Of a stretch of DNA of 64,000 nt, positions 1,474 through 59,751 are shown piece after piece. The DNA comes from Candidatus Nomurabacteria bacterium (lineage in GTDB: Bacteria; Patescibacteriota; Saccharimonadia; Saccharimonadales; VXPC01). The notes below the pieces were generated by a model, which did no database searches, was not told the origin of the DNA, and was given only the letters and a program-made list of their open reading frames with translations. Position numbers and translations under genes: made by a program. The DNA lies in NCBI GenBank assembly GCA_020631905.1, contig JACKGQ010000001.1, positions 229,854 through 293,853 of the forward strand, given 5' to 3'. Position 1 is the first letter of the stretch. Each line of letters opens with the position of its first letter.

Positions 1474-2280
1474 GTGGTTTTAACACAGACCCCCGGAAAG
1501 CCAACAGGCGGCTTACTTCTACCCGGGAAATTGATTGGAACTACTACAGCCATGACCATGACCATGACCGACTCGACCGTCAGCACCGACAACCTGCTCC
1601 AGCAGGTTGGTGCCATCACCAGCCACAAGTTCTACGAAGTGGTGATTGGCGATGCCAGGGTCATCCTGGACATCGCAACCATCCACGGGATCGGCAGCAG
1701 GCAGGACGCCAACAACGCGAATTCCATCTGCTGGGCCATCCGCGTGGCCGAAGGCAAGATCAACGCCCTCGAGGGCTTCTACCGCAAGGTGGAGGCCCAG
1801 CTGGCCGCGGTGCGCGAGCACCCACAGAGCGAGCACCTCTACGGGCGGGTCCGCGCCGACATCGACGCCGGCATGCCGGCGATCGGTCAAGAGCTTCAGC
1901 ACCAGCTGCAGTTCGCGCAGGAGAGGCTCTTGCCGGGCCTCGAGAAGCGCCAGGTCAGCCTGGACAAGGCCCTGCAGATCCTGGCGCGAGTGCGCCAGGA
2001 AGAGGCTTACGCCGACTTCGTGGACCAGCGCGGCCCGGCACCGGCCGAGTGCTTCGAGAACCTCGATGTTCTCTGGGCGCATCTCCACGCCTACAGGGAG
2101 TGGAACAGCGTTCTGCCCGACAACCCCGCCTTGCGGCACATGGGGCTCGACCCCAGTGTGACCCACCAGGGTCACCGGCCGCACAGCTCCGCCAGCCGGC
2201 GGGGTGCCGGTCCGCGTGACGACGTCCGCCCGAAGGCCCGCAACCCCAAGGGGAAGCGGGGCAAGGGGAACAAGCAGTAG
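1474..2280 (+). CDS. hypothetical protein, strongly G+C-rich ORF (island A)
   Basis: GTG start 11 nt after GGAGG (1459-1463); alternative ATGACC x3 start at 1551. This frame gives balanced amino-acid composition and G/C-dominated third codon positions. C-terminal tail is basic (KARNPKGKRGKGNKQ). No family recognised. Confidence 0.6.
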   Translation: MVLTQTPGKPTGGLLLPGKLIGTTTAMTMTMTDSTVSTDNLLQQVGAITSHKFYEVVIGDARVILDIATIHGIGSRQDANNANSICWAIRVAEGKINALEGFYRKVEAQLAAVREHPQSEHLYGRVRADIDAGMPAIGQELQHQLQFAQERLLPGLEKRQVSLDKALQILARVRQEEAYADFVDQRGPAPAECFENLDVLWAHLHAYREWNSVLPDNPALRHMGLDPSVTHQGHRPHSSASRRGAGPRDDVRPKARNPKGKRGKGNKQ

Positions 2281-3293: not shown

Positions 3294-3644
3294 AGAAAAG
3301 TAGTATATAGGCCGAAGGCCTTAGGGGCTAGTTTTAAGGAAAGCAAAGCATTAAATCTTTACTAATATTTTCAAGAAAGCAAAGCTTTCCATCTCACTCT
3401 TCTATTTTTGAAGAGACCAAAAACAGAAGCAAAAAAAGTCTTCCCAGCCACCCAAACATCCAGACTATCAAGCTTACAGCTCTTAAATCTGGTAACTTGC
3501 GGAACTTGCTGGCAAAGCCAGCTGCATACAGTCCTCGTTACCATACTTAAGAACTACAAGCTTGCTAATCTCGAGTTTGGGTGATGCTGGATATACAAGA
3601 CCGACAGACATCTAATATCCGAGTTCTAAGATCTATCTCATATC

Positions 3645-3680
3645 AATAAACGAGAAAACCCCGAGCCCCTGAGAGGGCTC
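3645..3680 (-). terminator. rho-independent terminator of G+C-rich ORF B1
   Basis: On the minus strand, stem GAGCCC-TCTCAG-GGGCTC is followed by GGGGTTTTCTCGTTT, directly after the stop at 3693. Confidence 0.55.
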
Positions 3681-3692
3681 TAGGGCTCTCGA

Positions 3693-4127
3693 TCAGAAGC
3701 TCGGGGTAGTTGCCCCAAGTCGACGTCGCTCGAAGCGTCGCCGTTTTCCATGTTGCGAGCCATGCATTTCGCAGGTGTGCTGCGGGTTGGCTTCTGTCAG
3801 CCAGTAGCAGAGCAGAAGCTGCAGGAACTCGCACGACCGTCGTGTCAGCAACTGCTCGGGGCAGTTACGATCCAGGCTGGTCACGTAGTAACCAAAGGAA
3901 TCTTGGTTAACCAGTAGCGAGTGATGAACTTCACCACTCAGATCGGCCAAAACCCGAAGGTCTGGTAGCTGGCAGTTGGAGTTCAGCCGGATGCGAAGGT
4001 AACCACCTGGCGGTGTATACTTGCCGGCGAGACTCACCGTCCGGTTGTCGAAGTGAATGGTAGGAGGTAGGTCGGTAGCAGACATGTCGAGCATTTGGAG
4101 CGACAGTCTGTTGAGGGTCGGGCTCAC
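3693..4127 (-). CDS. hypothetical protein, G+C-rich ORF (island B1)
   Basis: GTG start preceded by AAAGGA. 144 aa with a Cys-containing, Arg-rich C-terminus. Has its own promoter and terminator. No family recognised. Confidence 0.55.
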   Translation of the reverse strand: MSPTLNRLSLQMLDMSATDLPPTIHFDNRTVSLAGKYTPPGGYLRIRLNSNCQLPDLRVLADLSGEVHHSLLVNQDSFGYYVTSLDRNCPEQLLTRRSCEFLQLLLCYWLTEANPQHTCEMHGSQHGKRRRFERRRLGATTPSF

Positions 4128-4161
4128 TTGAGATCCTTTGTTGGCGTGTGGGACGAACGAC

Positions 4162-4190
4162 TATTATGCCAAATTTATTGATAATGTCAA
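4162..4190 (-). promoter_or_regulatory. sigma70-type promoter for ORF B1 (TTGACA-N16/17-CATAAT/ATAATA)
   Basis: Minus strand reads TTGACATTATCAATAAATTTGGCATAATA, in a short AT-rich gap between two G+C-rich ORFs. Confidence 0.55.
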
Positions 4191-4195
4191 CCCAT

Positions 4196-4227
4196 AAAAG
4201 CGGAAACCCCAGGCTACTTGCCTGGGG
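4196..4227 (-). terminator. rho-independent terminator after ORF B2 and its tRNA-like 3' element
   Basis: Minus strand: CCCCAGG-CAAGTAG-CCTGGGG followed by TTTCCGCTTTT. Confidence 0.6.
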
Positions 4228-4271
4228 CGTTGTAGTGCGGAGCGACGGCTCGACGCACAATTCAAAAGGAG

Positions 4272-4360
4272 AAGGTTCGAAGTGGGCGAACCCGGGTTTG
4301 AACCCGGACCGAGGAAACCTCGGTGTATTGGCGGTTAATCCGCCCACTACTCGAAACCTT
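4272..4360 (-). other. tRNA-like structured element (acceptor-like stem plus T-arm-like hairpin plus extra hairpin); not a canonical tRNA
   Basis: Minus strand starts 3 nt after the ORF B2 stop. Acceptor-like pair GTGGGCG/CGCCCAC is extended to about 17 bp. Hairpins are CCGAGG-TTT-CCTCGG and TCCGGG-TTCAAA-CCCGGG (T-loop-like). No D-arm or 7-nt anticodon loop can be drawn. Confidence 0.4.
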
Positions 4361-4363
4361 GAG

Positions 4364-4807
4364 CTACTCCGACATCGCGGGCGGCAGCCCCGCCTCGTGG
4401 GTGGCGTACCACTCACGGTGGGGATCGATCACCCCAGGCTCTTCAGAGTTGTTGCCATCTTCGATCAGGCCGAGACCCTTCGGCCAAGTCCTGATCAACC
4501 CCACGATGGTTGCGATGACCTCCTGCTCCTTCCGGGTTGAGGCGTCCGTGACGGGCGCATCGTGGGCTCCGAGCAGGATTTTCACCGTTGCGGTGTCCGG
4601 GTAGTAGACCCAGTCGTCAGCGCTGATGCCGGCGACTTGACCCATGTCGGCAATCAGCTGGTCGAGGCCGGCAGATGTCAACGGCTGGAAGAACTCGATC
4701 TCGCCGAAGTGACTGTTGGGATGGACTGCAATTCGCAACCAACCACAGCCGTCACCAAGCGTGGTGAGCTCCCTATCCGAACCCTCAGTGAAGGTTGAAG
4801 GTTTCAA
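4364..4807 (-). CDS. hypothetical protein, G+C-rich ORF (island B2)
   Basis: TTG start 5 nt after AGGAGA. 147 aa with balanced composition. Has its own promoter. No family recognised. Confidence 0.6.
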   Translation of the reverse strand: MKPSTFTEGSDRELTTLGDGCGWLRIAVHPNSHFGEIEFFQPLTSAGLDQLIADMGQVAGISADDWVYYPDTATVKILLGAHDAPVTDASTRKEQEVIATIVGLIRTWPKGLGLIEDGNNSEEPGVIDPHREWYATHEAGLPPAMSE

Positions 4808-7281: not shown

Positions 7282-8899
7282 GAGTAAACGAATATACTAC
7301 GATGCAGATGCCAGAGAGCGCTTACTGGGCGGTGCGAGGGCCCTGTACGAAGCTGTAAAAACAACTATGGGCCCCAAAGGTCGCAATGTGATTATCGCTA
7401 AAAGCTACGGCGCACCTACGATTACTCACGACGGTGTAACTGTTGCCAAAGGCATTGATTTACCAGATAACGATCCAGCTACTTTAGGCTATAAGGTGGG
7501 TGCCGAGCTGATCAAGCAAGCTGCCAACAAAATGAACGATGTTGCCGGCGACGGCACAACCACTGTAACTGTTCTGACCTACCATATTTTAAATGAAGCC
7601 AACAAACTAATTGCGGCTGGCCACAACCCAATGCAACTCCGCAAAGGCTTGGAAAAGGCTGCCGAAGAGGTAATTGCTGCTCTCGAAGGTATGCGCGAAG
7701 ATATCGGCAACGATAAAAAGCGGGTGGCTCAGGTAGCTACTATCTCGGCCGGCGACTCGACGATTGGCGACATGATTGCCGAAGTTATGGAAAAGGTCGG
7801 TCGCGAAGGTGTGGTAACTGTCGAAGAAGGCCAAGGACTGGCCATGGAAAGCGAAGTTGTCGAAGGCTTTACCTTTGACCGTGGTTTTGTTAGCCCCTAT
7901 ATGGTTACCGACAGCGGTCGCATGGAAGCAGTCTACGACAAGCCAAGTATCGTAATTACCGACAAGAAAATCTCGAGCATTCAAGAATTTTTACCAGTTC
8001 TTGAAAAGCTTGCCCAAGCTGGCAAAAAAGACGTAGTACTGATTGCCGAAGATGTTGAAGGCGAGGCTCTGGGAGCGCTGATTTTGAACAAGCTTAAAGG
8101 TGTGCTCAACACCGTTGCGGTTAAGGCTCCATCTTTTGGTGACCGCCGCAAAGATATTTTGAACGACATTGCCATTTTGACTGGTGCAACTGTGATTTCC
8201 GAAGACCAAGGCTATACCTTTGAGTCGGCCGACCTAAGCATGATCGGTAGTGCTCGCCGAGTAATTGTAACTGCCGACGAAACTACAATCATTGAGGGTG
8301 CCGGCAATCCGGTTGAATTAGCCTCGAGGATTGATCAGATCAAAACTCAGAGCACCAACGCAAGCAGCGAGTTCGACAAAGAAAACCTAGACAAACGAGC
8401 GGCTGCCCTAAATGGCAAAGTTGCGGTGATCAAAGTTGGTGGTGCCACCGAAACCGAGATCGAAGAGAAGAAATACCGAGTCGATGACGCTGTGGCTGCC
8501 GTCAAAGCCGCCCTCGACGAAGGCATCGTGCCTGGTGGTGGCGTAACACCTGTAAACTTAGCTGTTGCGATCGACGACACCGACTCTGGTGCCGCTATCT
8601 TGAAAAATGCTCTCGAACAACCATTCCGAATCTTACTAACCAACAGTGGTTTGAATGCCGACGAGTGGCTGCCGCAAGTTAAGGCCGGTAAGCCGGGTAT
8701 GGGACTAGACGTCAATAATCCAAGTAAATTGGTAGACATGAAGGCCAGTGGAATCGTCGACCCTGCTCGGGTAACACGCGAAGCCATCCAGAACGCAGTC
8801 TCGATTGCCGGCACCAGCATGACCATGGGTGCGCTTGTAGTCGACGAGCCAGAAGACAAGTCGGCTGGTGGTGCTCCTGATATGTCTGGCATGATGTAA
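7280..8899 (+). CDS. groEL: chaperonin GroEL
   Basis: 539 aa. Contains TMGPKGRNV, AGDGTTTVTVL and a C-terminal GGAPDMSGMM tail. Confidence 0.98.
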   Translation: MSKRIYYDADARERLLGGARALYEAVKTTMGPKGRNVIIAKSYGAPTITHDGVTVAKGIDLPDNDPATLGYKVGAELIKQAANKMNDVAGDGTTTVTVLTYHILNEANKLIAAGHNPMQLRKGLEKAAEEVIAALEGMREDIGNDKKRVAQVATISAGDSTIGDMIAEVMEKVGREGVVTVEEGQGLAMESEVVEGFTFDRGFVSPYMVTDSGRMEAVYDKPSIVITDKKISSIQEFLPVLEKLAQAGKKDVVLIAEDVEGEALGALILNKLKGVLNTVAVKAPSFGDRRKDILNDIAILTGATVISEDQGYTFESADLSMIGSARRVIVTADETTIIEGAGNPVELASRIDQIKTQSTNASSEFDKENLDKRAAALNGKVAVIKVGGATETEIEEKKYRVDDAVAAVKAALDEGIVPGGGVTPVNLAVAIDDTDSGAAILKNALEQPFRILLTNSGLNADEWLPQVKAGKPGMGLDVNNPSKLVDMKASGIVDPARVTREAIQNAVSIAGTSMTMGALVVDEPEDKSAGGAPDMSGMM

Positions 8900-8982
8900 G
8901 TATTCAGGAGGGAATGACTTTCCCTCCTGACGCGCAGGCAAATCGAAGATTTGTCTGGCTGTCCTCCCTTCGCAAAGGATCT

Positions 8983-9019
8983 AATAAACCCGGAGTAAAT
9001 CCGGGTTTATTAGTGTTTT
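8983..9019 (+). terminator. hairpin terminator downstream of groEL
   Basis: AATAAACCCGG-AGTAAAT-CCGGGTTTATT followed by AGTGTTTT. It is one of at least five hairpins between 8900 and 9130. Confidence 0.55.
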
Positions 9020-9231
9020 AAATGGTTATCTAGATGTTACTTATTCTTAAACTGGGAAGGTTGAGCGTTCTCGGGCTGCTCATATCCCAAAGCGGAATAA
9101 AGAGATCGGAGTGGATCCGATCTCTTCGCGGTTTTTGAGGAGGTGTGCTAGCCCTTCAACCAAAGACTTATAGCCTCTGATCAAATCCAGATTTATTTAA
9201 TTTTATGAAAATTGGGTGTTGTAAGTAAAAC

Positions 9232-9260
9232 TTGCAATACTTTAATACTTGTGGTATACT
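9232..9260 (+). promoter_or_regulatory. promoter TTGCAA-N17-TATACT (extended -10 TGG)
   Basis: TTGCAA at 9232-9237, 17-nt spacer ending in TGG, TATACT at 9255-9260. Upstream of the LPXTG protein gene. Confidence 0.6.
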
Positions 9261-9295
9261 ACAGTTACTAATTGGAAGGTTAGGAGTTGGATTAA

Positions 9296-9793
9296 ATGCC
9301 ATACAAGAAAAAAGATACCAAGATTTCTAATGCGCAAGCATATTTGAAGTCGACCGACACAGTCAGTCGACCGACTGCCATTATTATGAGCTTGTTAACG
9401 TTTTTGGCTGTATTTGCGGTTGTCTTGAGCCTATTCTTGGGTGGAAAGTGGTTGTACGACCGTCAGAACAATAATTCGAGCTCCTCGACCAGTACAACTC
9501 AGAGCACTTCTAGTAACACAGAAACAGACAATTCAAGCAAAGTTACCTCGAACTCAGCTGGCAACGACGGGCTTGGGATTACAGTTATCGACGGCGACGG
9601 CGAAAAGATTGCTAGTCGCGTGGGTGAGCAGTTTAACAAGTCGACCACTACCTCGACCGACAAGCCAGCTTCGACACCAGTCGTTAAAACCGATACTTTG
9701 CCTCGGACTGGTCCAGCCAACAATCTTCTGATTGCAGTCGGAGTTGTCGTAATTGTATCAGCTAGCCACAGCTTGTATGCTCGCCGCAGATAA
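9296..9793 (+). CDS. LPXTG-anchored Ser/Thr-rich surface protein
   Basis: N-terminal TM or signal anchor, S/T-rich spacer, then C-terminal LPRTG plus a hydrophobic stretch plus RRR, which is a sortase sorting signal. Confidence 0.8.
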   Translation: MPYKKKDTKISNAQAYLKSTDTVSRPTAIIMSLLTFLAVFAVVLSLFLGGKWLYDRQNNNSSSSTSTTQSTSSNTETDNSSKVTSNSAGNDGLGITVIDGDGEKIASRVGEQFNKSTTTSTDKPASTPVVKTDTLPRTGPANNLLIAVGVVVIVSASHSLYARRR

Positions 9794-14049: not shown

Positions 14050-14139
14050 AGGAGAGGTGTCCGAGTGGTTGAAGGAGCACGCTTGGAAAGCGTGTATGCG
14101 GGCAACCGTATCACGGGTTCGAATCCCGTCCTCTCCGCC
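14050..14139 (+). tRNA. tRNA-Ser (anticodon GGA), CCA encoded
   Basis: Acceptor GGAGAGG/CCTCTCC, anticodon arm CACGC-TTGGAAA-GCGTG, long variable arm, T-arm GGGTTCGAATCCC, 3' GCCA. Confidence 0.9.
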
Positions 14140-35250: not shown

Positions 35251-35660
35251 TGACTAGCTTGATTCATAAAGTTGCTGGGATAATAATAAAAGACAGGCAG
35301 TTACTGGTGGTGCGTGAGTTTGGTAAGAGCGTGTTTTTTAGCCCGGGTGGTAAGATTGAGCCCGGCGAAAGCAAAGAGCGGGTGCTAATGCGCGAGCTGG
35401 CCGAAGAACTCGGAATTCAGACAACCCCCAAAGATTTCAGGCCTTTTGGCCATTACAAGGCCGAAGCTGCCGGGAAGGTAGGCGCGATGCTCGAGATGGA
35501 TGTACTGATGGTTACGAACTACGAAGGCCAAATAAGGGCTGGTAGCGAGATCGAAGAGCTAGCTTGGGTCGACAGCCAGAACCAAGCCGGCTTAGAGCTT
35601 GGCAGTATATTTGAACATCATGTTATTCCCGAGCTAAAATCGAAAAACTTAATTGACTAG
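35244..35660 (+). CDS. NUDIX hydrolase (MutT-like)
   Basis: Nudix box GGKIEPGESKERVLMRELAEELGI. Confidence 0.85.
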   Translation: MVMTSLIHKVAGIIIKDRQLLVVREFGKSVFFSPGGKIEPGESKERVLMRELAEELGIQTTPKDFRPFGHYKAEAAGKVGAMLEMDVLMVTNYEGQIRAGSEIEELAWVDSQNQAGLELGSIFEHHVIPELKSKNLID

Positions 35661-37201
35661 CGTCTAGATAAGTCGAGCAGATCAGACCAATACAAGATTG
35701 AGCCACTGGCTAATAGTCGGTTAACTTCGGGTATTAGATCGTTGTCATTAAAATAGCCACTCCAAACTGCTATCGGGCTGTGGTTGACTGCTATCAGACC
35801 ATCTTCTATATGTACTGAGTCGAACGAACTAGTTTCAAGCAGACTTGGGTTACCTGCAGCGATTAGTGTAATCTTGCCTGGATCGTATGGTACGAGTCGT
35901 AGGTCGTACAGCTCACCAGATATGACCGAGTAAGAGCCAATAAAAGCTATTTGATCAAAAGCATTGCGTATTACGAGCGGGTTTTGGATGGTCGTAAAAG
36001 CGTATGCACCTTCGTATGCTTCGTCTATCTGATAAAAGTAAACAGCTGTAACATTATTTAAGTACTCAATTGACCCCTCGCCATTTAACACCGACTCGAT
36101 ACTCGATTGTGCTGCCTCTTGTGGACTTGGCTCTTGCTCTAGGTAGTTAAGCGTATTAAAGTTTGAATTCATGTATTTGTTGTAGTAGCTGGCGGGGCAG
36201 ATTCGGTAATAATTGGTTAAGTCGACCAAGCCAGACTTGAAGCCAGGGTATTTAGCCTCGATATCTTCGATAATCGCATATTGCTTGAGCTGGTAAACCG
36301 AGCCCCAATCTACATCTCCCGGTAATACCATGCCTCGAGAAGTGAGCATTTCCGTAACAAGCGTAGCCCAATCTTCATGCTCACTTTGAGCACCGTAGGC
36401 GACCGCAAACTGACGAAACTCTGAAGGTTCGATTAACCATGGAGCTGGATCTAGATAGCGATCATTCAGGTAGCTGATTTGTCTCTGACTAGACTGCAGC
36501 TCGGCAATAAGTTGATGGTATCTACTGCCTGAGTTGCATAATTCGGTCTGAAGCGCATGAGCAATCTCGTGTACGAATGTGTCTGGCCCGGCCGATTCGT
36601 CAACCGCAATATCTTGGATGCCAATGTTGAACGCAGATTTGTTGAAAGTCACTCCAGCTGCGTCGCCCAAATTTGGGTTATCCGGGATAGAGTCAATCGA
36701 GGCAAAGACCGAAATGCGCAGATCGAGTGAGCGGACTAATTCGCTTGGGTAAAATCCTGGCCCGAGAATCGGTCCACTCGGGTCTGGATAAGGCAGGTTA
36801 TCGTACAGTGGCTGATAGATGGGATCATTCAGGCCGGCTGGGGCGTCTTCGGGAGTGTATACCGGGTTATATTCAACCCCACGTGCAACCAATGTTTGCT
36901 GGATGTAATCGGCTTGTAGACCGGTGTCAAAATACGCGTTTCTCAGTTTTAAGGATTCAAGTATTTGTTCAAACATGCCGCCAACAGGTATCGGCGTTTT
37001 CTCGATACATACTTGGCTGCCTGGACTCGTTTGGACGGTCGACTCGACGGATGGTTGCTGGTTTGAGTCTGCCATACTTGCAGCTGTATCGGTCGAGCTG
37101 TAGTCACCATCTAAGGCTAGTCCAAACATGCTCGATAACACTAAACCAAAGGCTACAAAGCGGCGGCGCACAAAGGGCTGCTCGTATCTTGTTATTTTCA
37201 T
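35657..37201 (-). CDS. secreted or membrane-anchored putative zinc metallopeptidase (HExxH)
   Basis: N-terminal hydrophobic anchor and the FVHEIAHALQ motif. No family otherwise recognised. Confidence 0.5.
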   Translation of the reverse strand: MKITRYEQPFVRRRFVAFGLVLSSMFGLALDGDYSSTDTAASMADSNQQPSVESTVQTSPGSQVCIEKTPIPVGGMFEQILESLKLRNAYFDTGLQADYIQQTLVARGVEYNPVYTPEDAPAGLNDPIYQPLYDNLPYPDPSGPILGPGFYPSELVRSLDLRISVFASIDSIPDNPNLGDAAGVTFNKSAFNIGIQDIAVDESAGPDTFVHEIAHALQTELCNSGSRYHQLIAELQSSQRQISYLNDRYLDPAPWLIEPSEFRQFAVAYGAQSEHEDWATLVTEMLTSRGMVLPGDVDWGSVYQLKQYAIIEDIEAKYPGFKSGLVDLTNYYRICPASYYNKYMNSNFNTLNYLEQEPSPQEAAQSSIESVLNGEGSIEYLNNVTAVYFYQIDEAYEGAYAFTTIQNPLVIRNAFDQIAFIGSYSVISGELYDLRLVPYDPGKITLIAAGNPSLLETSSFDSVHIEDGLIAVNHSPIAVWSGYFNDNDLIPEVNRLLASGSILYWSDLLDLSRR

Positions 37202-39298: not shown

Positions 39299-39327
39299 TT
39301 GAAGAAATCGTCTAAGTATTGTAGAAT
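39299..39327 (+). promoter_or_regulatory. promoter TTGAAG-N17-TAGAAT upstream of G+C-rich ORF C
   Basis: TTGAAG at 39299-39304, 17-nt spacer, TAGAAT at 39322-39327. Confidence 0.55.
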
Positions 39328-39373
39328 ATGCATCTGGACAATCCGGTCCAATTACCCAAAAAGGGGTACGTAC

Positions 39374-39901
39374 ATGAACGAAGATTTCCATTCTGATATC
39401 GGTGGGGTTCGTGACCAGCTCAACAGCTTGTTACGGGAAATCAGGGAGCTTCAGGCAAGAGCTGCCCAGTTCCAGTCTGATCTCGATCGCCGTCGTTCCG
39501 TGCAGCTCGACCCTGGCATCACCTCTGTTGACGCACAACTCGCGGAGTTCAGGTTGAAGATCATGTTCCTCCGCACAGAGTTGCTCGATGTCGCTGAGGG
39601 GGGCATCACCGAGGCCTATGCCAGCAGAGTCGACGAGAGCATGCCCGGTGTCGTGGAGTTCTACAACGAGTTCTTCGAAGCTCTCCAGACCTACGTCTTC
39701 GAGCCCGACTGGTTCCCGTTGAGGTTGGTCTTGGTGCCGAAGCCATCGAGCTGGCACACGCCCTCGGTGTCTCACACCCAACTGGTAGACAGTTTCAAGC
39801 AGGAACTCGCTGAGTTGTTCGCCAAGCACGGTGTGACCAGTGGACGCGTCGACGTCCGTAGAGGTCAGATCGTGGCCTTCACCCTGGATCCCCAGCGGTA
39901 G
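39374..39901 (+). CDS. hypothetical protein, G+C-rich ORF (island C)
   Basis: ATG lies 8 nt after AAAAAGGGG. 175 aa with a coiled-coil-like N-terminus and G/C-rich third codon positions. The antisense ORF 39431-39973 is a GC artefact. Confidence 0.6.
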   Translation: MNEDFHSDIGGVRDQLNSLLREIRELQARAAQFQSDLDRRRSVQLDPGITSVDAQLAEFRLKIMFLRTELLDVAEGGITEAYASRVDESMPGVVEFYNEFFEALQTYVFEPDWFPLRLVLVPKPSSWHTPSVSHTQLVDSFKQELAELFAKHGVTSGRVDVRRGQIVAFTLDPQR

Positions 39902-44910: not shown

Positions 44911-45810
44911 ATGAGTGCAAGAAGCCGTCATACACCTACTTTGAGTGGCAGACTAGATATGGTCTTCCCGAATGACCCGATGTCCGAGGCCCGTAGCAGT
45001 GGGCGAATGGTGGTTCAGGAATTTACCTGGGGCGATGCATTGAGTAAAGTTGTCGAACAACTAGATATTAGCGTAGCAGATGCCCTAAAAATGCTCGGCA
45101 TATCTTTGGAGACCGTCCAGAACAGTGGCGTGATCAAGCTGACCGATGGGGCATATGCCGAATATCAGGAAGACCGGGTCGATGAACTGGCTAGAACAAT
45201 CGCTACGCAGATACAGCCAGAAATCGAAAGAATTGGGTTGCGATTCGAGGAGCTTAAGGCTGGTTGGCGTGTTGAGGAGGATCGTCTGGATAGCTACCAA
45301 AAACTAGCTGAGATGCTCCTAAATTATGCTAGTGAGACAGATAATCTGCATGAAGACCTTAACTCTCAAGCAAGACATTTTCCACCTCGCACAGCTCTAA
45401 GATATGCAATTTATGAACTCAGGGATTTTAATGACGATCTTCAGGCTAGACTCCGGGATATGGCCGGTCGCTTAGAAAAAAGTGCACACCTACTATCGTT
45501 AGCCGATCTGGCGACAGGTGTACTTGAAGCCGGTCTCTCAAGTTCTTACGGACAACTAATTACCTCTAGGGCTCTAGCTTCGACCATAGAAGCTATTTTG
45601 CAGGGGCATCGTTACGACGTTTCGCGCGTCTTGGTTGATCGACTTCTGGTTGGTGACACTCAGCTAGATGTTTTTAGGAGACAACTACGAACCGAAGCAT
45701 ATGAGTACTGCTTGGCCGAAGCTCGAGACAGGTGGCAGCAGGTTGCCGAAGTTGTCTTTCTAGCCGAAGATCCATACTACTTAAGAGTTAAAAACGGTCA
45801 AGAACAATAA
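44911..45810 (+). CDS. hypothetical protein (299 aa)
   Basis: Long helical-looking ORF. No motif recognised. Confidence 0.55.
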   Translation: MSARSRHTPTLSGRLDMVFPNDPMSEARSSGRMVVQEFTWGDALSKVVEQLDISVADALKMLGISLETVQNSGVIKLTDGAYAEYQEDRVDELARTIATQIQPEIERIGLRFEELKAGWRVEEDRLDSYQKLAEMLLNYASETDNLHEDLNSQARHFPPRTALRYAIYELRDFNDDLQARLRDMAGRLEKSAHLLSLADLATGVLEAGLSSSYGQLITSRALASTIEAILQGHRYDVSRVLVDRLLVGDTQLDVFRRQLRTEAYEYCLAEARDRWQQVAEVVFLAEDPYYLRVKNGQEQ

Positions 45811-45816
45811 AATAAC

Positions 45817-45845
45817 TTGCATAATATTTACACATATGTTATAAT
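45817..45845 (+). promoter_or_regulatory. promoter TTGCAT-N17-TATAAT driving the G+C-rich non-coding locus
   Basis: TTGCAT at 45817-45822, exact 17-nt spacer, consensus TATAAT at 45840-45845. Confidence 0.65.
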
Positions 45846-45852
45846 GATGTAA

Positions 45853-46410
45853 TCAACCTGAGGTGAGGTGTTTAACCCCTTGAGTTGAACATTTACAATC
45901 AGGTACTAGAAAAAAAATCGCGGTGGCGAGGCAGACGACGGTGTTGGATTACCGTATGGCGCCTTAGCCCCAGTTGGCATGTTGCAAGCAGCAATTCTGC
46001 AGCGTCATCTGACGTGCACCACATTTGTTGGCCGGCAAAGATTAGCCGGACTTGCCAAACTTCTCCGAGGTGCGCGTCGCGTGCTTTGGGGTGCGTGCGG
46101 GCTCACCCGCAACCGAATGGGCGATGCCGGATCCGCTGGCCGCCGAATAGACCCTAGTGAAAGGGGTAAGCTGTGGTCCCACCGGGCCTCTAGGCCGTAC
46201 CGGTCCAAGATGCTACCACCCGAAAGGGGGAGCTATATCAGACTGGTACGGCTATCTTCAGTCAAAATCTGGTGCTCCGCTACAGGCTTGCGTCCACTAC
46301 GTGGCCACCTGGGGCGGAGCACCGAGACCCAATGAAAACCGCCGCCCCGACCTCGTGCAATCGGCCGCAAGGCAGCATGGGGTCGGGGCACAGGTTATCT
46401 AGTACCTGAA
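45853..46410 (+). ncRNA. candidate large structured ncRNA, class unassigned
   Basis: Consensus promoter upstream. An 11-bp closing inverted repeat (45899-45909 / 46399-46409) encloses a core of about 61% G+C. The core has perfect 9-13 bp helices and GNRA loops on the + strand. Only R/W/C-rich overlapping ORFs are present. Confidence 0.55.
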
Positions 46411-46457
46411 TTTCCACTAAATCTTAAAAGAGTTAAGGTTTGATGGAGATTAAATAC

Positions 46458-46485
46458 TTGCCACATCTGTTATTTGTGGTACAAT
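46458..46485 (+). promoter_or_regulatory. rpsO promoter TTGCCA-N16-TACAAT with TG extension
   Basis: TTGCCA at 46458-46463 and TGgTACAAT at 46477-46485. Confidence 0.6.
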
Positions 46486-46554
46486 TTAGGCTAACGCCAT
46501 CACTCTTATCTGAATAATTAGAAGAGTACAAAGTAATAAAGGAGTAATACCTGC

Positions 46555-49156: not shown

Positions 49157-49711
49157 ATGGCAAAAAATTTACACGAAACAGGTTACGAGCATCGGTTTGT
49201 GGCATTTGATTTCAGTGGCTTTCCTTCTGTGATTGAGGTCGATGGTATAACCCTAAATTTCTTTAATCTCGAAGATGCCGAACGACTAGATGAGATAACG
49301 TCTGATGACACCGTCCAGAGGTACATTCCTTGGGCAGCTGAAGATAAGCGTGCATATATTGAAAGGACGACTACGGCCAGGCAGAACAGAGGCCCCCGAT
49401 ATGCCATAAGGCTAGGAGAAATTCTGATTGGCCATTTTGCCATTTTTCCTAGTCCTGACGTACAAGGTGTTATTGAACTAGGCTACGTTATTGATAAGGC
49501 TTACAGGGGCCAAGGAATCATACCTAAGGTTTTGCTTGAATGTGAGTCAATAATTAGAGAGCAAATGCCTAAAGCAAGAATAGGCTTAGCAATAAACGAT
49601 GAAAACGAGGCGAGTATACGTGTTGCCCAAAAAGCAGGTTTCGAACGTACCGATACTATCAGTGATGGAGATAGGTTGTATATAAAAGTAGGGGATCAGA
49701 TTGGTCAATAA
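49157..49711 (+). CDS. GNAT family N-acetyltransferase (RimJ/RimL-like)
   Basis: YRGQGI acetyl-CoA-binding-loop pattern. 184 aa. Confidence 0.8.
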   Translation: MAKNLHETGYEHRFVAFDFSGFPSVIEVDGITLNFFNLEDAERLDEITSDDTVQRYIPWAAEDKRAYIERTTTARQNRGPRYAIRLGEILIGHFAIFPSPDVQGVIELGYVIDKAYRGQGIIPKVLLECESIIREQMPKARIGLAINDENEASIRVAQKAGFERTDTISDGDRLYIKVGDQIGQ

Positions 49712-52417: not shown

Positions 52418-53002
52418 ATGATAAACCAGTTTAATCGCCCGGATAGAAGCTACGATATTCTGCCGTACGATCCTGTGTGGGCTATAAAATTTAAAGAATT
52501 ACGCGAAAGGCTCAAGGCGGTCCTTGGAGATATAGCGATATTAGTAGAGCATATTGGTAGTACGGCAGTTCCAGGTATGGCGGCCAAGCCACAAATTGAT
52601 GTCATAGTTGGAGTAAACAACCTAGAAGATGTGCGCACACTTAAAGACAAAATGGCAGATGCCGGTTTTAGCGCCAGAGGCGATTTCGTTGGTAACGGTG
52701 AAGAGTACTTTACTGAAGATGATCAGGCTGGTCACAGACTAGCGAGTATTCATATTCAAAAAATAGATAGTCCGGAAATTCCTAAACAAATTCGTTTTCG
52801 TGAATACATGCGGCTGAATATCAATGGCGATCGAGATTTATACGAGCTGAAGAAACAAGAACTAAAACAACTCTTCCCAGATAGCTATAATGCCTATGGC
52901 GACGGTAAACGTCTGCTACTCGAAGAAATTCATCAACGCTGTAAAAAGTGGGCCGAAGAAGCTAACTTTCACTATGAAGATTACATAAATAGAGATGAGT
53001 AG
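52418..53002 (+). CDS. GrpB family protein (UPF0157)
   Basis: EHIGSTAVPGMAAKPQIDV signature. ATG 52418 is taken within the longer track ORF that overlaps rnj. Confidence 0.8.
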   Translation: MINQFNRPDRSYDILPYDPVWAIKFKELRERLKAVLGDIAILVEHIGSTAVPGMAAKPQIDVIVGVNNLEDVRTLKDKMADAGFSARGDFVGNGEEYFTEDDQAGHRLASIHIQKIDSPEIPKQIRFREYMRLNINGDRDLYELKKQELKQLFPDSYNAYGDGKRLLLEEIHQRCKKWAEEANFHYEDYINRDE

Positions 53003-53004
53003 AT

Positions 53005-53667
53005 GTGGATTTGTTTACATCTAACCTAGACGCCTTGCATCATGTGCAGCGCGAGGTGCTGAGAAAGCTTACTTACAGCCCATTCGTACTGTCGCACGCA
53101 GCATTGCTACCAGAAGGAATGGCTGGCAATTCTTTTAACTATCATTTACGTACTCTGATTCGCCAGAAGCTTATACAGAAGAACGAAGAGGGCTACCTTC
53201 TAACACCACTAGGCAGGCTGGTGATTGATTCGATGTCTCTCGACGACAAACGCTTTAAGTTACGACCAAGTGTCGGTATCATGCTAATTATTAAATCAGG
53301 CCGCAAGACCTTACTTTATAAGAGTAGTCGGCAGCCTATGCCAGGTTTTGTAGCTCTGCCATATGGCAAATTAAGAATATCGCAAACCTTTTTTGAAACA
53401 GCCGAGCGTATAATCAAGCGCCGTGGAATAGACCCACGAGCTATTAAGGATCTAGAGTTTAGAGAACCATTTAACCTTCGTTATTACCAGGGCGAACAAC
53501 TGGTTGCGCATCGGGTGGGTGAAATATGGACAGCAAATTACTCAGGCACCTTAAGTGATTTTCAGACAGAAAACGGGCAGACATTCTGGAGCGATCAACT
53601 AGTCGAATCTAAAGAGCTAGATCTGCTGACTAGTACTGGCTTACATGATGCTCGGATAGACATCTAG
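53005..53667 (+). CDS. hypothetical protein with N-terminal winged-helix-like domain
   Basis: GTG start. FNYHLRTLIRQKLIQKNEEGYLLTPLGR resembles a wHTH. The C-terminal domain is unassigned. Confidence 0.4.
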   Translation: MDLFTSNLDALHHVQREVLRKLTYSPFVLSHAALLPEGMAGNSFNYHLRTLIRQKLIQKNEEGYLLTPLGRLVIDSMSLDDKRFKLRPSVGIMLIIKSGRKTLLYKSSRQPMPGFVALPYGKLRISQTFFETAERIIKRRGIDPRAIKDLEFREPFNLRYYQGEQLVAHRVGEIWTANYSGTLSDFQTENGQTFWSDQLVESKELDLLTSTGLHDARIDI

Positions 53668-53737
53668 GTAAAAAGTTTTACTTACCTACGCAGGCTTGGG
53701 TTGCTATCGTTTTGCCATAAACGAAAGGATAGAAATA

Positions 53738-54610
53738 ATGGCAGTCGAAACAAGATTTCCAAATTCAGATATGAAAGAACGCTGGGAGATTATGAACGAA
53801 GCCCTGCGAGTCTGTACACACTTGGCGATGCGAGCCTTTGCTGAAGGTTACGATTTACAGGTGGAATATAAGCCTGATGGCAGTAAAGTCACCGAGTTAG
53901 ACGTAGCCTTAAACGAGAAGTTGATAGAGCTAATCAAACAACACTTACCCCAGGACACAGTACTAGGCGAAGAAGTAAAGTATCTACCAGCCCAACCTAA
54001 TGGCTTTGTTTGGCTCCACGATCCCATAGATGGAACAAGTGGCTTTGTGCGTAATTCTCGTAATAAAACTCCAGGTCTTTGCACCTCGGCGGGCATGATC
54101 GCACTGATACCTCCTGGACAAAAGCAGCCCTGCATGGCTGGTGTCGATCGAATATCTGACGAGCCAGAAACATATGCACTGAGTGATTGGTCGAATTGGG
54201 GAGTCGACATGCCAGAAGCATACCGGGTCAGAACTGAGGTTGAGTCTTTAGCCCAAGTCGAGCGTTACGACTGGAACCACTGGGACGGCGCTGAACTTGA
54301 TTTAAGAAGGTTAGACGCACATCTGCCAAAGACCGCAAAAAGAATCAAGATTTCTTCGCTAGGAATTATGGCGGGTAGGGTGGCGACTGGCTTGCTCGAC
54401 TTTGCAGTGTTTCCGGGACCTCGCAGCAACCCACATGACTACGTACCGTCAATGTATTTGCTAGACAATAACCCATACGAACCGTGGGTAACCAACTTAG
54501 ACGGAGAGACCATTGTAAACATAGATTGCCTGAGACCAACCAACGGCGTGATACTTGCTAGCTCTCAGCACCTGGGCGCTGAGCTACTAGAGCTATGTGC
54601 TAATTTGTAA
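53738..54610 (+). CDS. inositol monophosphatase family protein (SuhB/CysQ-like)
   Basis: LGEE and WLHDPIDGTSGF motifs. RBS GAAAGGA lies upstream of ATG 53738. Confidence 0.8.
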   Translation: MAVETRFPNSDMKERWEIMNEALRVCTHLAMRAFAEGYDLQVEYKPDGSKVTELDVALNEKLIELIKQHLPQDTVLGEEVKYLPAQPNGFVWLHDPIDGTSGFVRNSRNKTPGLCTSAGMIALIPPGQKQPCMAGVDRISDEPETYALSDWSNWGVDMPEAYRVRTEVESLAQVERYDWNHWDGAELDLRRLDAHLPKTAKRIKISSLGIMAGRVATGLLDFAVFPGPRSNPHDYVPSMYLLDNNPYEPWVTNLDGETIVNIDCLRPTNGVILASSQHLGAELLELCANL

Positions 54611-57026: not shown

Positions 57027-57800
57027 ATGCAAGACACCAGAATAGAAGCACCACTCGATAAATACAAAATGCCACTGCCGGTAATTACGCCAGCTTATAT
57101 TGCTCGAACACTAGGGCGTTCAGGCGTGGATGGGCATCATTCAAATTTTAACCGGCGTCGAGCAGAGCTAAATACGCCTGGTGGTCGGGCGCTACGAGCG
57201 CTTAGGGTTCAAGATATTCTAGTGCCTGTGCATCGTCGATTTAACGAAGTTTGTCGACAACCAGACTTAAGTTTTCTTGATCACCCCATACCGGGGCAAC
57301 CAGTGTTTGAGCGAGTCCCGCTTTACCACGCCGCCTATATTCCAACTCACGGCATAAACCCATATGCTGATGATCCAAGCAAATTCGTCAGTCTCAGTCC
57401 TAAGCAGCGCGCTTTGCTCGGTGAAGACGTAGAGCTCGAAGGCAGATTCGACCGAGACAACAGATACGTCCTATCTGAGCATATCGGTAATTTTATGTTT
57501 GGCTTTATGCTTGATAATTTTACCGACGAAACTGATCTAGAAAATGTGTCCGCCTTAAGTCTCAAGAAAGCCAAACAAGCTAGATTAATCCGAGAAATTA
57601 TGAAGCGTGTGGTTGGAGATGCTGCAGCATTGGCTCAGCCAATGTATAAGCGGGCTAGGCTTGATCGCCGAACGACTCGTATGCGTCACTGCATACACGC
57701 AGTCGAAGTCTTAGTTGATTTACTCGACAGGGCTTATGTCAATCGTAGCGCAGAAGATGTTTTTGGTTTCGAACTCAAAGCACGGGCTGGGTTGAGTTAA
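57027..57800 (+). CDS. hypothetical protein (257 aa)
   Basis: Long ORF with protein-like composition. No motif recognised. Confidence 0.55.
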   Translation: MQDTRIEAPLDKYKMPLPVITPAYIARTLGRSGVDGHHSNFNRRRAELNTPGGRALRALRVQDILVPVHRRFNEVCRQPDLSFLDHPIPGQPVFERVPLYHAAYIPTHGINPYADDPSKFVSLSPKQRALLGEDVELEGRFDRDNRYVLSEHIGNFMFGFMLDNFTDETDLENVSALSLKKAKQARLIREIMKRVVGDAAALAQPMYKRARLDRRTTRMRHCIHAVEVLVDLLDRAYVNRSAEDVFGFELKARAGLS

Positions 57801-57835
57801 TCAGATATATTCAAGCTCACTTAAAAGAATAAATG

Positions 57836-57862
57836 GAAAAGCCCGGATAAAGTATCCGGGCT
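57836..57862 (-). terminator. 10-bp hairpin terminator (U-run on the minus strand)
   Basis: AGCCCGGATA-(AAG/CTT)-TATCCGGGCT at 57840-57862. On the minus strand it is followed by TTTTCC. It also sits after the + strand ORF 57027-57800. Confidence 0.7.
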
Positions 57863-58319
57863 GGGTAGTCTTTTTACGAGCATACCCGAAGGCTCGACTG
57901 GGATAGCATCTCTTTTCTTCGAGATGTTGACCATTTTTAGGCGGTTGCAAGCGGTTAAACGCGCTTCGGCCTAAAAAGGTGAGGTCTCTCAGTGTAACCT
58001 CAGCGAACCTGTGGAACGTGTCACTAGGGCTATTGCCACCGGACTTGCGTCCAGTATCTACGTTCCAAGGTGTGCGCCGCCTATCCGGTAAGGTCCTGGC
58101 GTCGGCCTCAGCGTTGCATGCAGTAGCCCATTCGGGCTAAAGGCTTCGCATCTTGGTCGGGGCCATGCTTTCGAAGCGCACAAAATTCTTGCCGAGTTAC
58201 CCCTCGGCAGGGTGGAGGCGTTACAGCTACTCGTAGCCGAAAGCCTTCTGCAGCCAGCGTAGCTGGGCTGCAATCATCTCTCCCCCCTTTCGATAGACGT
58301 AGGAATTTGGATGATGACA
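57836..58319 (-). ncRNA. candidate large structured ncRNA, class unassigned
   Basis: Minus-strand promoter at 58326-58354 and terminator at 57836-57862. The ~480 nt between have no plausible ORF but many perfect helices: 9-bp 57934-57942/57969-57977, 7-bp 58013-58019/58060-58066, and GGAC-GCAA-GTCC at 58041-58052. Confidence 0.55.
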
Positions 58320-58325
58320 AGACAT

Positions 58326-58354
58326 ATAGTAACATAACATAGAAAAATAGTCAA
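58326..58354 (-). promoter_or_regulatory. promoter TTGACT-N17-TACTAT (minus strand)
   Basis: Reverse complement of 58349-58354 is TTGACT. A 17-nt spacer follows. Reverse complement of 58326-58331 is TACTAT. Confidence 0.6.
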
Positions 58355-58379
58355 TATATTTTTAAAGATTGCAAAACAT

Positions 58380-58408
58380 TTGCATGCGACCACTGTTAGT
58401 GATACAAT
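58380..58408 (+). promoter_or_regulatory. rpsF operon promoter TTGCAT-N17-TACAAT
   Basis: TTGCAT at 58380-58385 and TACAAT at 58403-58408. Divergent from the ncRNA promoter. Confidence 0.6.
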
Positions 58409-58473
58409 TTCACACGCAAACTTCAGCTTGTGGCTCAAAGTGCACAGGCATTAACCAAAGGAAGGAGTCTTTA

Positions 58474-58848
58474 GTGGATACATACGAAGTTGCGGTTTTG
58501 TACCATCCCGATCTCGAGCTTGACCTCGACAAAGGTGCAACCAAAGTTAAACAAATAATTAGCGACGCCGGCGGCAAATTAGTTGCCGAAGATGTCTGGG
58601 GGAAGCGCAAGCTAGCTTACCGAATCGCCGGTAACGAGCACGCGGTTTATGCCTTTTACGAGGTGCAGATGCCTGGTACAGCGATTGCCAAGATAGAGGC
58701 TAGTCTGAATATCACCGACGAAGTGATCCGTTTTTTGATATCAAAGAACGACACCGAAGCAGTCGAAAAGGCCCGAATTTTTAAAGAAAAACGCAAGCGT
58801 GAAGAGTCTGACGACGAACAAAAAGCAGAAGATAACAACGACAACTAA
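58474..58848 (+). CDS. rpsF: 30S ribosomal protein S6 with acidic tail
   Basis: GTG start after AAGGAAGGAG. YEVAVLYHPDLE...WGKRKLAYRI. The track ORF extends further upstream (TTG 58369). Confidence 0.9.
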   Translation: MDTYEVAVLYHPDLELDLDKGATKVKQIISDAGGKLVAEDVWGKRKLAYRIAGNEHAVYAFYEVQMPGTAIAKIEASLNITDEVIRFLISKNDTEAVEKARIFKEKRKREESDDEQKAEDNNDN

Positions 58849-59472: not shown

Positions 59473-59751
59473 ATGAGCGAACACGAGAATTTAATATGTG
59501 TCGAAGGCAAAAGGTGCTCGAACTGTCCATTTGTGGGTAATGTTGCCGTGAAAGCAGTTATCGTTGATCGTCGTGATGGTTCGTTAACAGTTGACTATGT
59601 CGACGGCACCGAACCGGCACCTGAAAGAGATCAAGCTGATTCTGCGAATGCTAAGGATGCAAAGATGCTGATTCGTTTTGGTGTATGCTCGAGCCATGGC
59701 TCATGGGACACTGAAAAATACAGCGAACTAAATGAAAATATGATGGGCTAA
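59473..59751 (+). CDS. hypothetical protein (92 aa) inserted between ssb and rpsR
   Basis: ATG ORF with a CxxC-containing N-terminus (CVEGKRCSNCPF). No family recognised. Confidence 0.45.
   Translation: MSEHENLICVEGKRCSNCPFVGNVAVKAVIVDRRDGSLTVDYVDGTEPAPERDQADSANAKDAKMLIRFGVCSSHGSWDTEKYSELNENMMG

Follow-up and report, generated by a model that had tools for sequence, protein, structure and literature searches.

A GC-rich, structured insertion upstream of rpsF in a Saccharibacteria genome as a lead for an RNA gene

Introduction

What, if anything, is encoded by a GC-rich stretch without a recognizable gene that separates a conserved hypothetical gene from the promoter of rpsF? This question is raised by positions 57836-58354 of a 64-kb stretch of DNA from a Candidatus Nomurabacteria genome (GCA_020631905.1, contig JACKGQ010000001.1; Saccharibacteria, candidate phyla radiation (CPR)), the whole of which is called the window here and supplies all coordinates. 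An initial annotation, made from the sequence alone, had described the locus as a compact, structured unit on the minus strand, poor in open reading frames (ORFs) and divergent from rpsF. The analysis presented here bears this out with a promoter-like site, a terminator, a predicted fold and a lack of coding signal. Large structured RNAs that belong to no family are rare, and they have repeatedly opened new biology, as with OLE, ROOL, GOLLD and HEARO/omega RNA.

The locus is an unconfirmed lead for a new RNA gene, and its description as a structured, ORF-poor unit without a family stands. Our tentative reading, to which we give somewhat less than an even chance, is an orphan gene, recently gained and with transcription of its own, that encodes a structured non-coding RNA (ncRNA) of about 480 nucleotides (nt) acting in trans. 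We infer its transcription, the strand and ends of the transcript, the action in trans and the protein-binding role of the RNA from the features described below.

Transcription Signals and Predicted Fold

The body of the locus is enriched in GC (0.545 overall and up to 0.585 in 200-nt segments, versus 0.468 for the window) and is flanked exactly, on the same strand, by a sigma-70-type promoter-like site and an intrinsic terminator (Table 1), each recovered independently by consensus scan. Both had been proposed in the initial annotation, the one as TTGACT-N17-TACTAT on the minus strand and the other as a 10-bp hairpin with a U-run about 480 nt further on. The scans confirm them and add a TG extension to the promoter-like site (58334-58333, minus strand), its spacer ending in TGt. 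Stem and loop of the terminator occupy 57862-57840 and are followed by UUUUCC. Because the transcript would probably start near 58318, a predicted helix closing the 5' and 3' ends (58323-58319 with 57872-57868) probably lies outside the RNA.

The predicted structure is non-random. The minimum free energy (MFE) of the 496-nt minus-strand sequence is -192.6 kcal/mol, compared with -157.3 +/- 6.5 kcal/mol for 100 dinucleotide shuffles (z-score -5.4), and a fold begun at the likely start, G58318, gives a z-score of -5.9. When perfect hairpins are counted, with Watson-Crick pairs only, stems of at least 6 bp and loops of 3-10 nt, the locus contains five of them, versus 0.78 +/- 0.80 in shuffled sequences; none of 500 shuffles reached five or more. 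The density of such hairpins is the highest among 513 sliding windows across the 64 kb. The earlier impression of a transcript packed with perfect helices is thus borne out, and all helices listed at that time were found where they had been placed. Robust parts of the fold are the local hairpins, most of whose helices have a pair probability above 0.9, and the three-way junction at 58078-58002, while the long-range helices are uncertain (0.36-0.98) and are placed differently by the MFE and centroid folds. The hairpin at 58182-58209 is an internal terminator-like site, at which a transcript of about 135 nt could end.

Table 1. Predicted features of the minus-strand unit between the 257-aa protein gene and rpsF, in 5' to 3' order of the putative transcript
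Feature	Position	Strand	Description	Basis
Promoter-like site, sigma-70 type	58354-58326	-	-35 TTGACT 58354-58349, 17-nt spacer, -10 TACTAT 58331-58326	consensus scan and sequence
Probable transcription start	58315-58319, about G58318	-	7-8 nt past the -10 element	promoter geometry
5' hairpin	58273-58318	-	outer stem GUCAUC/GAUGAU; buries Shine-Dalgarno-like AGGGGG	MFE fold; pair probabilities 0.6-0.9
16-codon ORF	58277-58227	-	MIAAQLRWLQKAFGYE and stop; AUG 5 nt past the AGGGGG run	read from sequence
Perfect hairpin	58249-58272	-	UGCAGCC(C)AGC-UAC-GCU GGCUGCA	pair probability 0.84-0.99
Hairpin	58216-58246	-	AGGC...GCCU around CGGCUA-CGAG-UAGCUG	pair probability 0.94-0.95
Perfect 7-bp hairpin	58182-58209	-	UGCCGAG-GGGUAA-CUCGGCA, then AGAAUUUUGU	terminator scan; MFE fold
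Hairpin	58143-58177	-	GCUUCG...CGAAGC, 23-nt interior	pair probability 0.98
Perfect hairpin	58124-58139	-	UAGCCC-GAAU-GGGCUA	MFE fold and perfect-hairpin count
Predicted three-way junction	58002-58078	-	outer helix GGCG/ACCU/UGGAACGU with ACGUUCCA/AGGU/CGCU	pair probabilities 0.88-0.98
Hairpins inside the three-way junction	58055-58038; 58037-58028	-	GNRA hairpin ACUGGAC-GCAA-GUCCGGU; GGC-AAUA-GCC	
Hairpin	57981-58001	-	GAGGUU-ACACUGAGA-GACCUC	pair probability 0.94
Hairpin with perfect 9-bp stem	57930-57980	-	UUUUUAGGC/GCCUAAAAA (57977-57969 / 57942-57934), 26-nt interior	
Perfect hairpin	57907-57926	-	CAUCUC-GAAGAAAA-GAGAUG	MFE fold and perfect-hairpin count
Local hairpin	57877-57896	-	CGAGC-CUUCGGGUAU-GCUCG, holds C(UUCG)G	MFE alternative: long-range pairing with 58121-58101
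Intrinsic terminator	57822-57862	-	perfect 10-bp stem AGCCCGGAUA-CUU-UAUCCGGGCU, then UUUUCCAUUUAUUCUUUU	terminator scan; pair probability 0.96

Coding Potential

The locus shows no coding signal. The earlier statement that the plus strand carries no ORF is slightly inaccurate, as a GTG-initiated ORF of 53 amino acids (aa) extends from 57979 to 58140, but its codon usage is non-coding-like, and no frame of the locus looks coding. Codon-usage log-odds of the ORFs and open frames range from -0.40 to 0.14, the latter value being the 5th percentile of the real genes of the window. No three-base periodicity of GC was found in the locus, while the foreign gene at 1552-2280 of the same window shows values of 0.67/0.42/0.90. 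The concatenated open stretches of all six frames, which served also as a proxy for DNA homology, gave no match at E<=1 among 5.8 billion clustered proteins, and the longest open frame (111 codons, with no start codon in the first 62) had 0 matches among 1.84 billion representatives. A decayed foreign gene was rejected, as period-3 signal, codon bias and homologue are all missing. No homologue was found for the 16-codon ORF at 58277-58227, which is possible but unsupported as a coding element.

Comparison with Relatives

The locus is absent from the relatives examined. In the closest relative (L030), whose proteins average about 80% identity across a syntenic block of 20 kb, the orthologue of the 257-aa protein encoded next to the locus is followed by rpsF after 90 nt. 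The order FtsK-hypothetical-rpsF occurs in four relatives (L003, L004, L006 and L012/L030, the first three being metagenomic relatives more distant than the closest one), with a gap of about 65-95 nt or none, compared with 674 nt here. The rpsF loci of relatives include nine from JGI metagenomes, and the rpsO relatives considered further below come from Logan, NCBI and ENA. As the gap is short or missing in four relatives, the locus is a lineage-specific insertion of about 0.56 kb, which comprises exactly the promoter, the body and the terminator. Beyond the insert, the promoter and leader of rpsF are intact, and the promoter and a leader hairpin are conserved throughout these relatives.

The 5' leader of rpsF (58409-58473, plus strand) consists of CUUCAG, a hairpin and UUAACC-AAAGGAAGGAG, and is common to this genome, L030, L003, L004, L006, L007, L008 and L009. 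Its hairpin shows three compensatory base pairs across the eight genomes and serves as a positive control, indicating that the comparative method works in this clade. The element matches no Rfam family at E<=10 and is probably an S6:S18 autoregulatory leader.

Searches for homologues of the insert itself were negative. This applies to nhmmer --max against about 235 kb of fetched loci, of which about 150 kb were contigs of Saccharibacteria relatives, and to blastn in distant mode against phage and plasmid collections. A scan of a genome collection with a loop-anchored purine/pyrimidine pattern returned one chance match, located inside a coding region of Chloroflexota. Five pattern scans of viral contigs detected no homologue; their 12 matches to GCAAGTCCGGTGGCAAT are due to chance and show no similarity past the 17-mer, 10 of the 12 sharing one conserved phage sequence that reads as coding. 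A second copy of the locus was not found within the 64-kb window. Three other assemblies cover the locus on contigs with an identical rpsF, and all are 100% identical over the RNA and thus uninformative on strain variation. The 257-aa neighbour places the source in Candidatus Saccharibacteria, being found in GCA_020428525.1 and in Logan assemblies with a contig of 770 kb among them. It has only a single homologue cluster among the 5.8 billion clustered proteins (P0002, 60% identity), which indicates that the lineage is sparsely sampled.

The public metagenome-assembled genome GCA_020428525.1 has a break within the locus, between the end of contig JAGQMU010000021 at 57940 and the start of JAGQMU010000073 at 57997, which leaves 56 nt (57941-57996) unassembled. 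This gap lies around the hairpin with the 9-bp stem, and Logan assemblies from two other runs span it at 100% identity. Population heterogeneity, the hairpin or coverage are candidate causes of the break.

Known RNA Families and Comparable Systems

The locus matches no known RNA family. Searched at the gathering score, the whole window gave a single Rfam 15 match, a tRNA-Ser at 14051. When filters were permissive and matches up to E<=10 were admitted, no RNase P RNA, transfer-messenger RNA (tmRNA), signal recognition particle (SRP) RNA, 6S RNA, intron, ROOL, GOLLD, OLE, HEARO or raiA RNA was found at 57700-58500, in a scan that shows no matches below about 15 bits and so covers extreme divergence of RNase P only partly. 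The matches returned for this interval (MicC, twister-P3, anti-hemB, GP20-b and the Trp leader) are at chance level, with 15-19 bits, far below the gathering scores. The twister-P3 match was rejected: it lies on the plus strand (57934-57977), reaches 18.2 bits where the gathering score is 39.9 (E=1), collapses 41 consensus positions to 6, and covers one stem and half a loop. ARAGORN called no tmRNA or tRNA at default settings and only implausible permuted ones at thresholds of 60-80%, and the locus sequence contains neither a tRNA-like domain nor a GGUUCGA-type T-loop. SRP RNA, known by its domain IV motif, and 6S RNA, a rod with a central bubble, were likewise rejected, as neither matches at E<=10 and the predicted fold is a chain of short hairpins rather than a rod. 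The same holds for group I and group II introns, whose catalytic cores are P3-P9 and domain V/VI, respectively, in view of the lack of Intron_gpI, Intron_gpII or D1-D4 matches at E<=10, the promoter and terminator of the locus' own, and its intergenic site. The initial annotation, which had seen no signature of RNase P, tmRNA or SRP RNA and had recommended an Rfam scan, is in agreement with these results: the scan gave no confident match to a known family.

The RNase P case deserves comment because of the string AAGUCCGG at 58049-58042. In RNase P RNA, whose conserved core comprises P1-P4, P7-P12 and P15, the 5' strand of helix P4, GAGGAAAGUCCGG, is located about 60 nt from the 5' end, and its 3' strand, ACAGAAnCCGGCUUA, near the 3' end. 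In the locus, AAGUCCGG is found at about position 278 of about 480, inside the GGAC-GCAA-GUCC hairpin, as the initial annotation had already noted in arguing against a P4-like context. An ACAGAA-type 3' strand is missing and the order of elements does not fit RNase P RNA. CPR bacteria do carry diverged RNase P RNAs that can be recovered at lowered thresholds (Lui et al. 2021, PMC8172020), and the locus resembles them in its CPR host, its length of about 0.4-0.5 kb, its having been missed by standard annotation and the AAGUCCGG string. Those RNAs, however, were found with RF00010 and have kept their core helices (PMC8172020), whereas nothing was detected here at E<=10; the string, moreover, is mid-molecule in a local GNRA hairpin, a motif for the 3' strand of P4 is missing, and the locus was inserted recently and does not occur in relatives.

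CPR bacteria also contain stem-loop guide arrays of the tandem interspaced guide RNA (TIGR) type, together with Tas proteins, which have a Nop domain (PMC12045711). A stem-loop TIGR array is built of regular tandem units, each with two 8-12-nt spacers, box C/D-like motifs and a palindromic stem (PMC12045711). The locus shares with these transcribed arrays the occurrence in CPR bacteria and the variable palindromic stem-loops beside a small protein gene that is hard to annotate. On inspection, however, its units are irregular, with loops of 3-40 nt, and repeated CCA...UG boxes around 8-12-nt spacers are missing. For the adjacent 257-aa protein, searches gave no Nop, Pfam, NCBIfam or PDB sequence match, and AlphaFold produced no usable model (predicted local distance difference test score 34.5). 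A TIGR-Tas array was rejected in view of the irregular units and of the occurrence of orthologues of the 257-aa protein in relatives that lack the RNA.

Comparable in overall design are the large bacterial ncRNAs OLE, ROOL, GOLLD and raiA, whose function is unknown or only recently emerging and which were obtained by an approach in which long GC-rich intergenic regions are searched (PMC8632094, PMC11109978). Like these, the locus is a stand-alone, non-coding unit of several hundred nucleotides, with a GC content above that of its AT-richer genome, a multi-domain fold of many hairpins and a patchy distribution consistent with horizontal movement. In contrast to them, it has no Rfam 15 match and is represented by one known sequence, while those families are defined by covariation across many genomes. 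No surveyed genome is described as that of a CPR bacterium in PMC8632094 or PMC11109978, and the literature search turned up no account of an RNA of this kind from Saccharibacteria or CPR bacteria.

Hairpin stacks, bidirectional terminators, repetitive extragenic palindromic (REP) sequences and elements resembling miniature inverted-repeat transposable elements (MITEs) are similar to the locus in their perfect short palindromes, their intergenic convergent or divergent sites and equal folding on both strands. They differ in that the locus has neither a repeated unit nor a second copy in 64 kb, and neither terminal inverted repeats nor a clear target duplication, its ends showing only weak AT-rich similarity (I7, 82% over 11 nt; ATATAT on both flanks). 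It also has a promoter-like site and a three-way junction, and is far longer than terminators need to be.

Interpretation of the Locus

According to the tentative reading as an orphan ncRNA gene, the unit would be a recent arrival in this genome, a cassette of about 0.56 kb placed between the end of the conserved hypothetical gene and the rpsF promoter. The minus strand would be transcribed from the unit's own sigma-70-type promoter, with a start near 58318, and transcription would end at the strong intrinsic terminator (57862-57840) or perhaps, to give an RNA of about 135 nt, at the hairpin and U-tract of 58209-58182. In the predicted fold, about ten short hairpins, most of them perfect, follow one another as a chain, with one three-way junction and with GNRA (GCAA) and C(UUCG)G loops. 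The RNA would most likely act in trans as a stable structured molecule, for example as a protein-binding scaffold or decoy, and not as a message.

Several observations weigh against this reading. Promoter-like matches are no rarer in the region than expected by chance (3 seen versus 2.1 expected), and because chance gives about two such sites per 2.2 kb, this one is supported by where it lies, next to the boundary of the GC-rich body. Strong folding is also seen in the foreign high-GC protein gene (z-score -4.8) and in two intergenic regions (-6.5 and -7.2), while two other coding controls reach -1.5 and -1.65; in this genome the fold z-score is therefore not specific for RNA genes. Most local stems consist of flawless Watson-Crick pairs without a sign of long-term compensatory drift, as would be expected equally of a young RNA and of DNA palindromes or terminator stacks. 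In folding energy, the plus strand equals or surpasses the minus strand. No homologue was found, so covariation is lacking too, and the three covering assemblies are identical. The initial annotation had named missing conservation or covariation in relatives as a refutation of an RNA gene, and the outcome was negative on this point: the relatives have no such locus. By that measure, the lack of conservation counts against a conserved functional RNA. Such an RNA is thus not demonstrated, and the results agree with a young acquisition specific to this lineage, with at most a putative function. The absence from a relative with about 80% protein identity indicates that the RNA does not belong to the core machinery of the lineage.

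The minus strand is nevertheless probably the RNA strand. The plus strand has the lower energy (MFE -202.9 kcal/mol, z-score -6.7) with 14 G-U pairs versus 8, and mirroring its structure onto the minus strand costs 22 kcal/mol, versus only 4 kcal/mol for the reverse. This energy advantage is partly or largely compositional, because shuffles of the plus strand are also lower by about 12 kcal/mol. Since the opposite strand folds at least equally well, the strand call rests on promoter, terminator and loop content and not on folding energy. Stable tetraloops and A-rich unpaired bases are typical of known structured RNAs. The minus-strand loops include GCAA and C(UUCG)G, and its unpaired positions are rich in A (0.38), while the plus strand has loops without stable tetraloops and U-rich unpaired bases. 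A functional plus-strand RNA, which would be a long 3' untranslated region of the 257-aa gene or a far-upstream leader of rpsF, carries little probability. On the plus strand, the consensus scan found no promoter-like site ahead of the body, and further downstream rpsF is served by a conserved promoter and leader of its own. Transcription continuing out of the 257-aa gene would be halted before the body by terminator-like hairpins of the plus strand at 57840-57862 and 57904-57929.

The most serious competitor of an ncRNA gene is a non-functional relic of horizontally acquired or mobile, palindrome-rich and GC-richer DNA in an intergenic site that tolerates insertions. Its hairpins would do nothing or would serve only, at the level of DNA or transcript ends, as a bidirectional terminator or insulator that separates the convergent hypothetical gene from the divergent rpsF promoter, an explanation that we consider unlikely without calling it far-fetched. 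It would account for the absence of the locus from all relatives examined, for the failure of the searches to find a homologue and for perfect palindromic helices that fold equally on both strands. Recent gain of DNA is a feature of this genome, because the window contains foreign high-GC DNA (gene 1474-2280 with a GC content at third codon positions (GC3) of 0.90, and the island 3700-4750, which holds a tRNA-like fragment) and, in a block of 30 kb, about 10 kb of lineage-specific segments that the closest relative lacks. Stacks of perfect hairpins make up other intergenic regions of the window as well, and the foreign gene attains its strong z-score without being an RNA gene. A random relic, however, would not need a promoter-like site reading into the body and a strong terminator on the same strand. 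Traces of a decayed coding frame, terminal inverted repeats, a convincing target duplication and a second copy in 64 kb are all missing, the hairpin density is the highest in the window, and about 480 nt far exceeds what a terminator or insulator needs. An improbable alternative is a small-protein, leader-peptide or dual-function RNA, in which the 16-codon ORF would be translated, the 5' hairpin and the 58209-58182 hairpin would be attenuator-like, and the other 340 nt would be a structured 3' region or the remnant of a lost downstream gene. It draws on the Shine-Dalgarno-like run 5 nt from the AUG, which is buried in the 5' hairpin and could alternatively pair with CCUCCACCC, and on the terminator-like hairpin about 17 nt past the stop codon. 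Yet an ORF of 16 codons is roughly what chance would yield, regulatory codons are not repeated in the peptide, the putative attenuator has no gene behind it, and all longer ORFs combine poor codon usage with the lack of a homologue. An extremely diverged member of a known family (a CPR-type RNase P RNA, tmRNA, 6S RNA, SRP RNA, ORF-less intron or TIGR stem-loop array) is very improbable. The precedents in CPR bacteria for diverged RNase P RNAs and TIGR arrays speak for it, as does a pairing on paper of AAGUCCGG with CCGGGCUU in the 3' arm of the terminator. Against it stand the empty searches at E<=10, the ARAGORN results, the unfit order of RNase P elements, the missing tRNA-like domain, the irregular hairpin units and the 257-aa neighbour, which lacks a Nop match and has orthologues where the RNA is absent. 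An essential RNA would not be absent at this position from all relatives while being a fresh insertion in this genome.

A Second GC-Rich Unit Upstream of rpsO

A second GC-rich unit (0.58) is located at 45811-46554 of the window, with an RNA-like body at about 45880-46410 on the plus strand. It folds with a z-score of -6.8, has a 12-bp closing stem (AUCAGGUACUAG/CUAGUACCUGAU) and lies behind a promoter-like site, TTGCAT-17-TATAAT. No match to it beyond chance level was found in Rfam 15 at E<=10, and none among plasmids by blastn in distant mode. It is missing in 7 of 7 relatives, in which the gene upstream of rpsO (TruB in 4 of the 7) is followed by rpsO after 46-205 nt and the promoter and leader of rpsO are kept. 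Downstream of this insertion, the rpsO promoter and leader are conserved (46440-46554 versus 9895-10000 of L030, with AACGCCAUCACUCUUA, AAGAGUACAA and AAAGGAGUAA in this order); the leader is probably one for autoregulation by S15. A scan for such gaps in relatives, covering about 120 kb of their sequence, revealed no long intergenic region rich in GC.

The two loci have in common that they are lineage-specific, GC-rich and structured, and that each is located just upstream of a ribosomal-protein promoter. The initial annotation had counted them as two unassigned RNAs of about 0.5 kb. The 45.8-kb unit is indeed also without a family and similar in appearance, but searches detected no similarity of the two above chance level. 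They share an AAUAG(A)CCCUAGUGA motif, but their best local alignment was matched by 74 of 500 shuffles, so paralogy was rejected. It is a long shot that both represent an undescribed class of promoter-to-terminator RNA cassettes of about 0.5 kb, horizontally acquired by Saccharibacteria or CPR bacteria, kept directly upstream of ribosomal-protein operon promoters (rpsF, rpsO) and each encoding a new large ncRNA that acts in trans in the biology of this episymbiont.

If both units are expressed, they would show that even a genome of about 0.77 Mb devotes more than 1 kb to newly acquired ncRNA genes, and that horizontal transfer of such genes takes the form of compact cassettes. Should expression be absent, they call for caution: GC-rich, strongly folding intergenic regions can then arise from foreign DNA without being RNA genes, and fold z-scores combined with promoter and terminator look-alikes are insufficient for calling such genes.

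Other Features of the Window

The protein gene at 1474-2280 (plus strand) has a GC content of 0.66-0.70 and a GC3 of 0.90 in a genome of 47% GC, and is preceded by an AT-rich, native-looking promoter region. It has no Pfam or phage match and looks like a recent transfer from a high-GC organism, with an actinobacterial host as a possible donor. The GC-rich island at 3700-4750 (0.58-0.61) holds a tRNA-like element on the minus strand (4275-4345) with a 7-bp acceptor stem (GUGGGCG/CGCCCAC), a T-arm (CCGGG-UUCAAAC-CCGGG) and degenerate D and anticodon arms. This element is not called by ARAGORN or Rfam and may be the remnant of an integration site or a tRNA pseudogene.

Between ssb and rpsR, an ORF of 92 aa (59473-59751, plus strand) with gene-like codon usage and no family match is missing in the closest relative, where the distance between ssb and rpsR is 18 nt. 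Two AT-rich intergenic regions fold strongly: that at 8880-9300 (z-score -7.2) is a stack of five perfect hairpins of 10-14 bp, and that at 3294-3709 (z-score -6.5) contains a single imperfect hairpin, about 150 nt long. From polA to efp (31000-61000), the block measures about 30 kb here versus about 20 kb in L030, which points to considerable recent gene flux in this small genome, and its approximately 10 kb of extra segments include 35657-37201, 39299-39901 (GC3 0.72), 44911-45810, 49157-49711 and 52450-54610.

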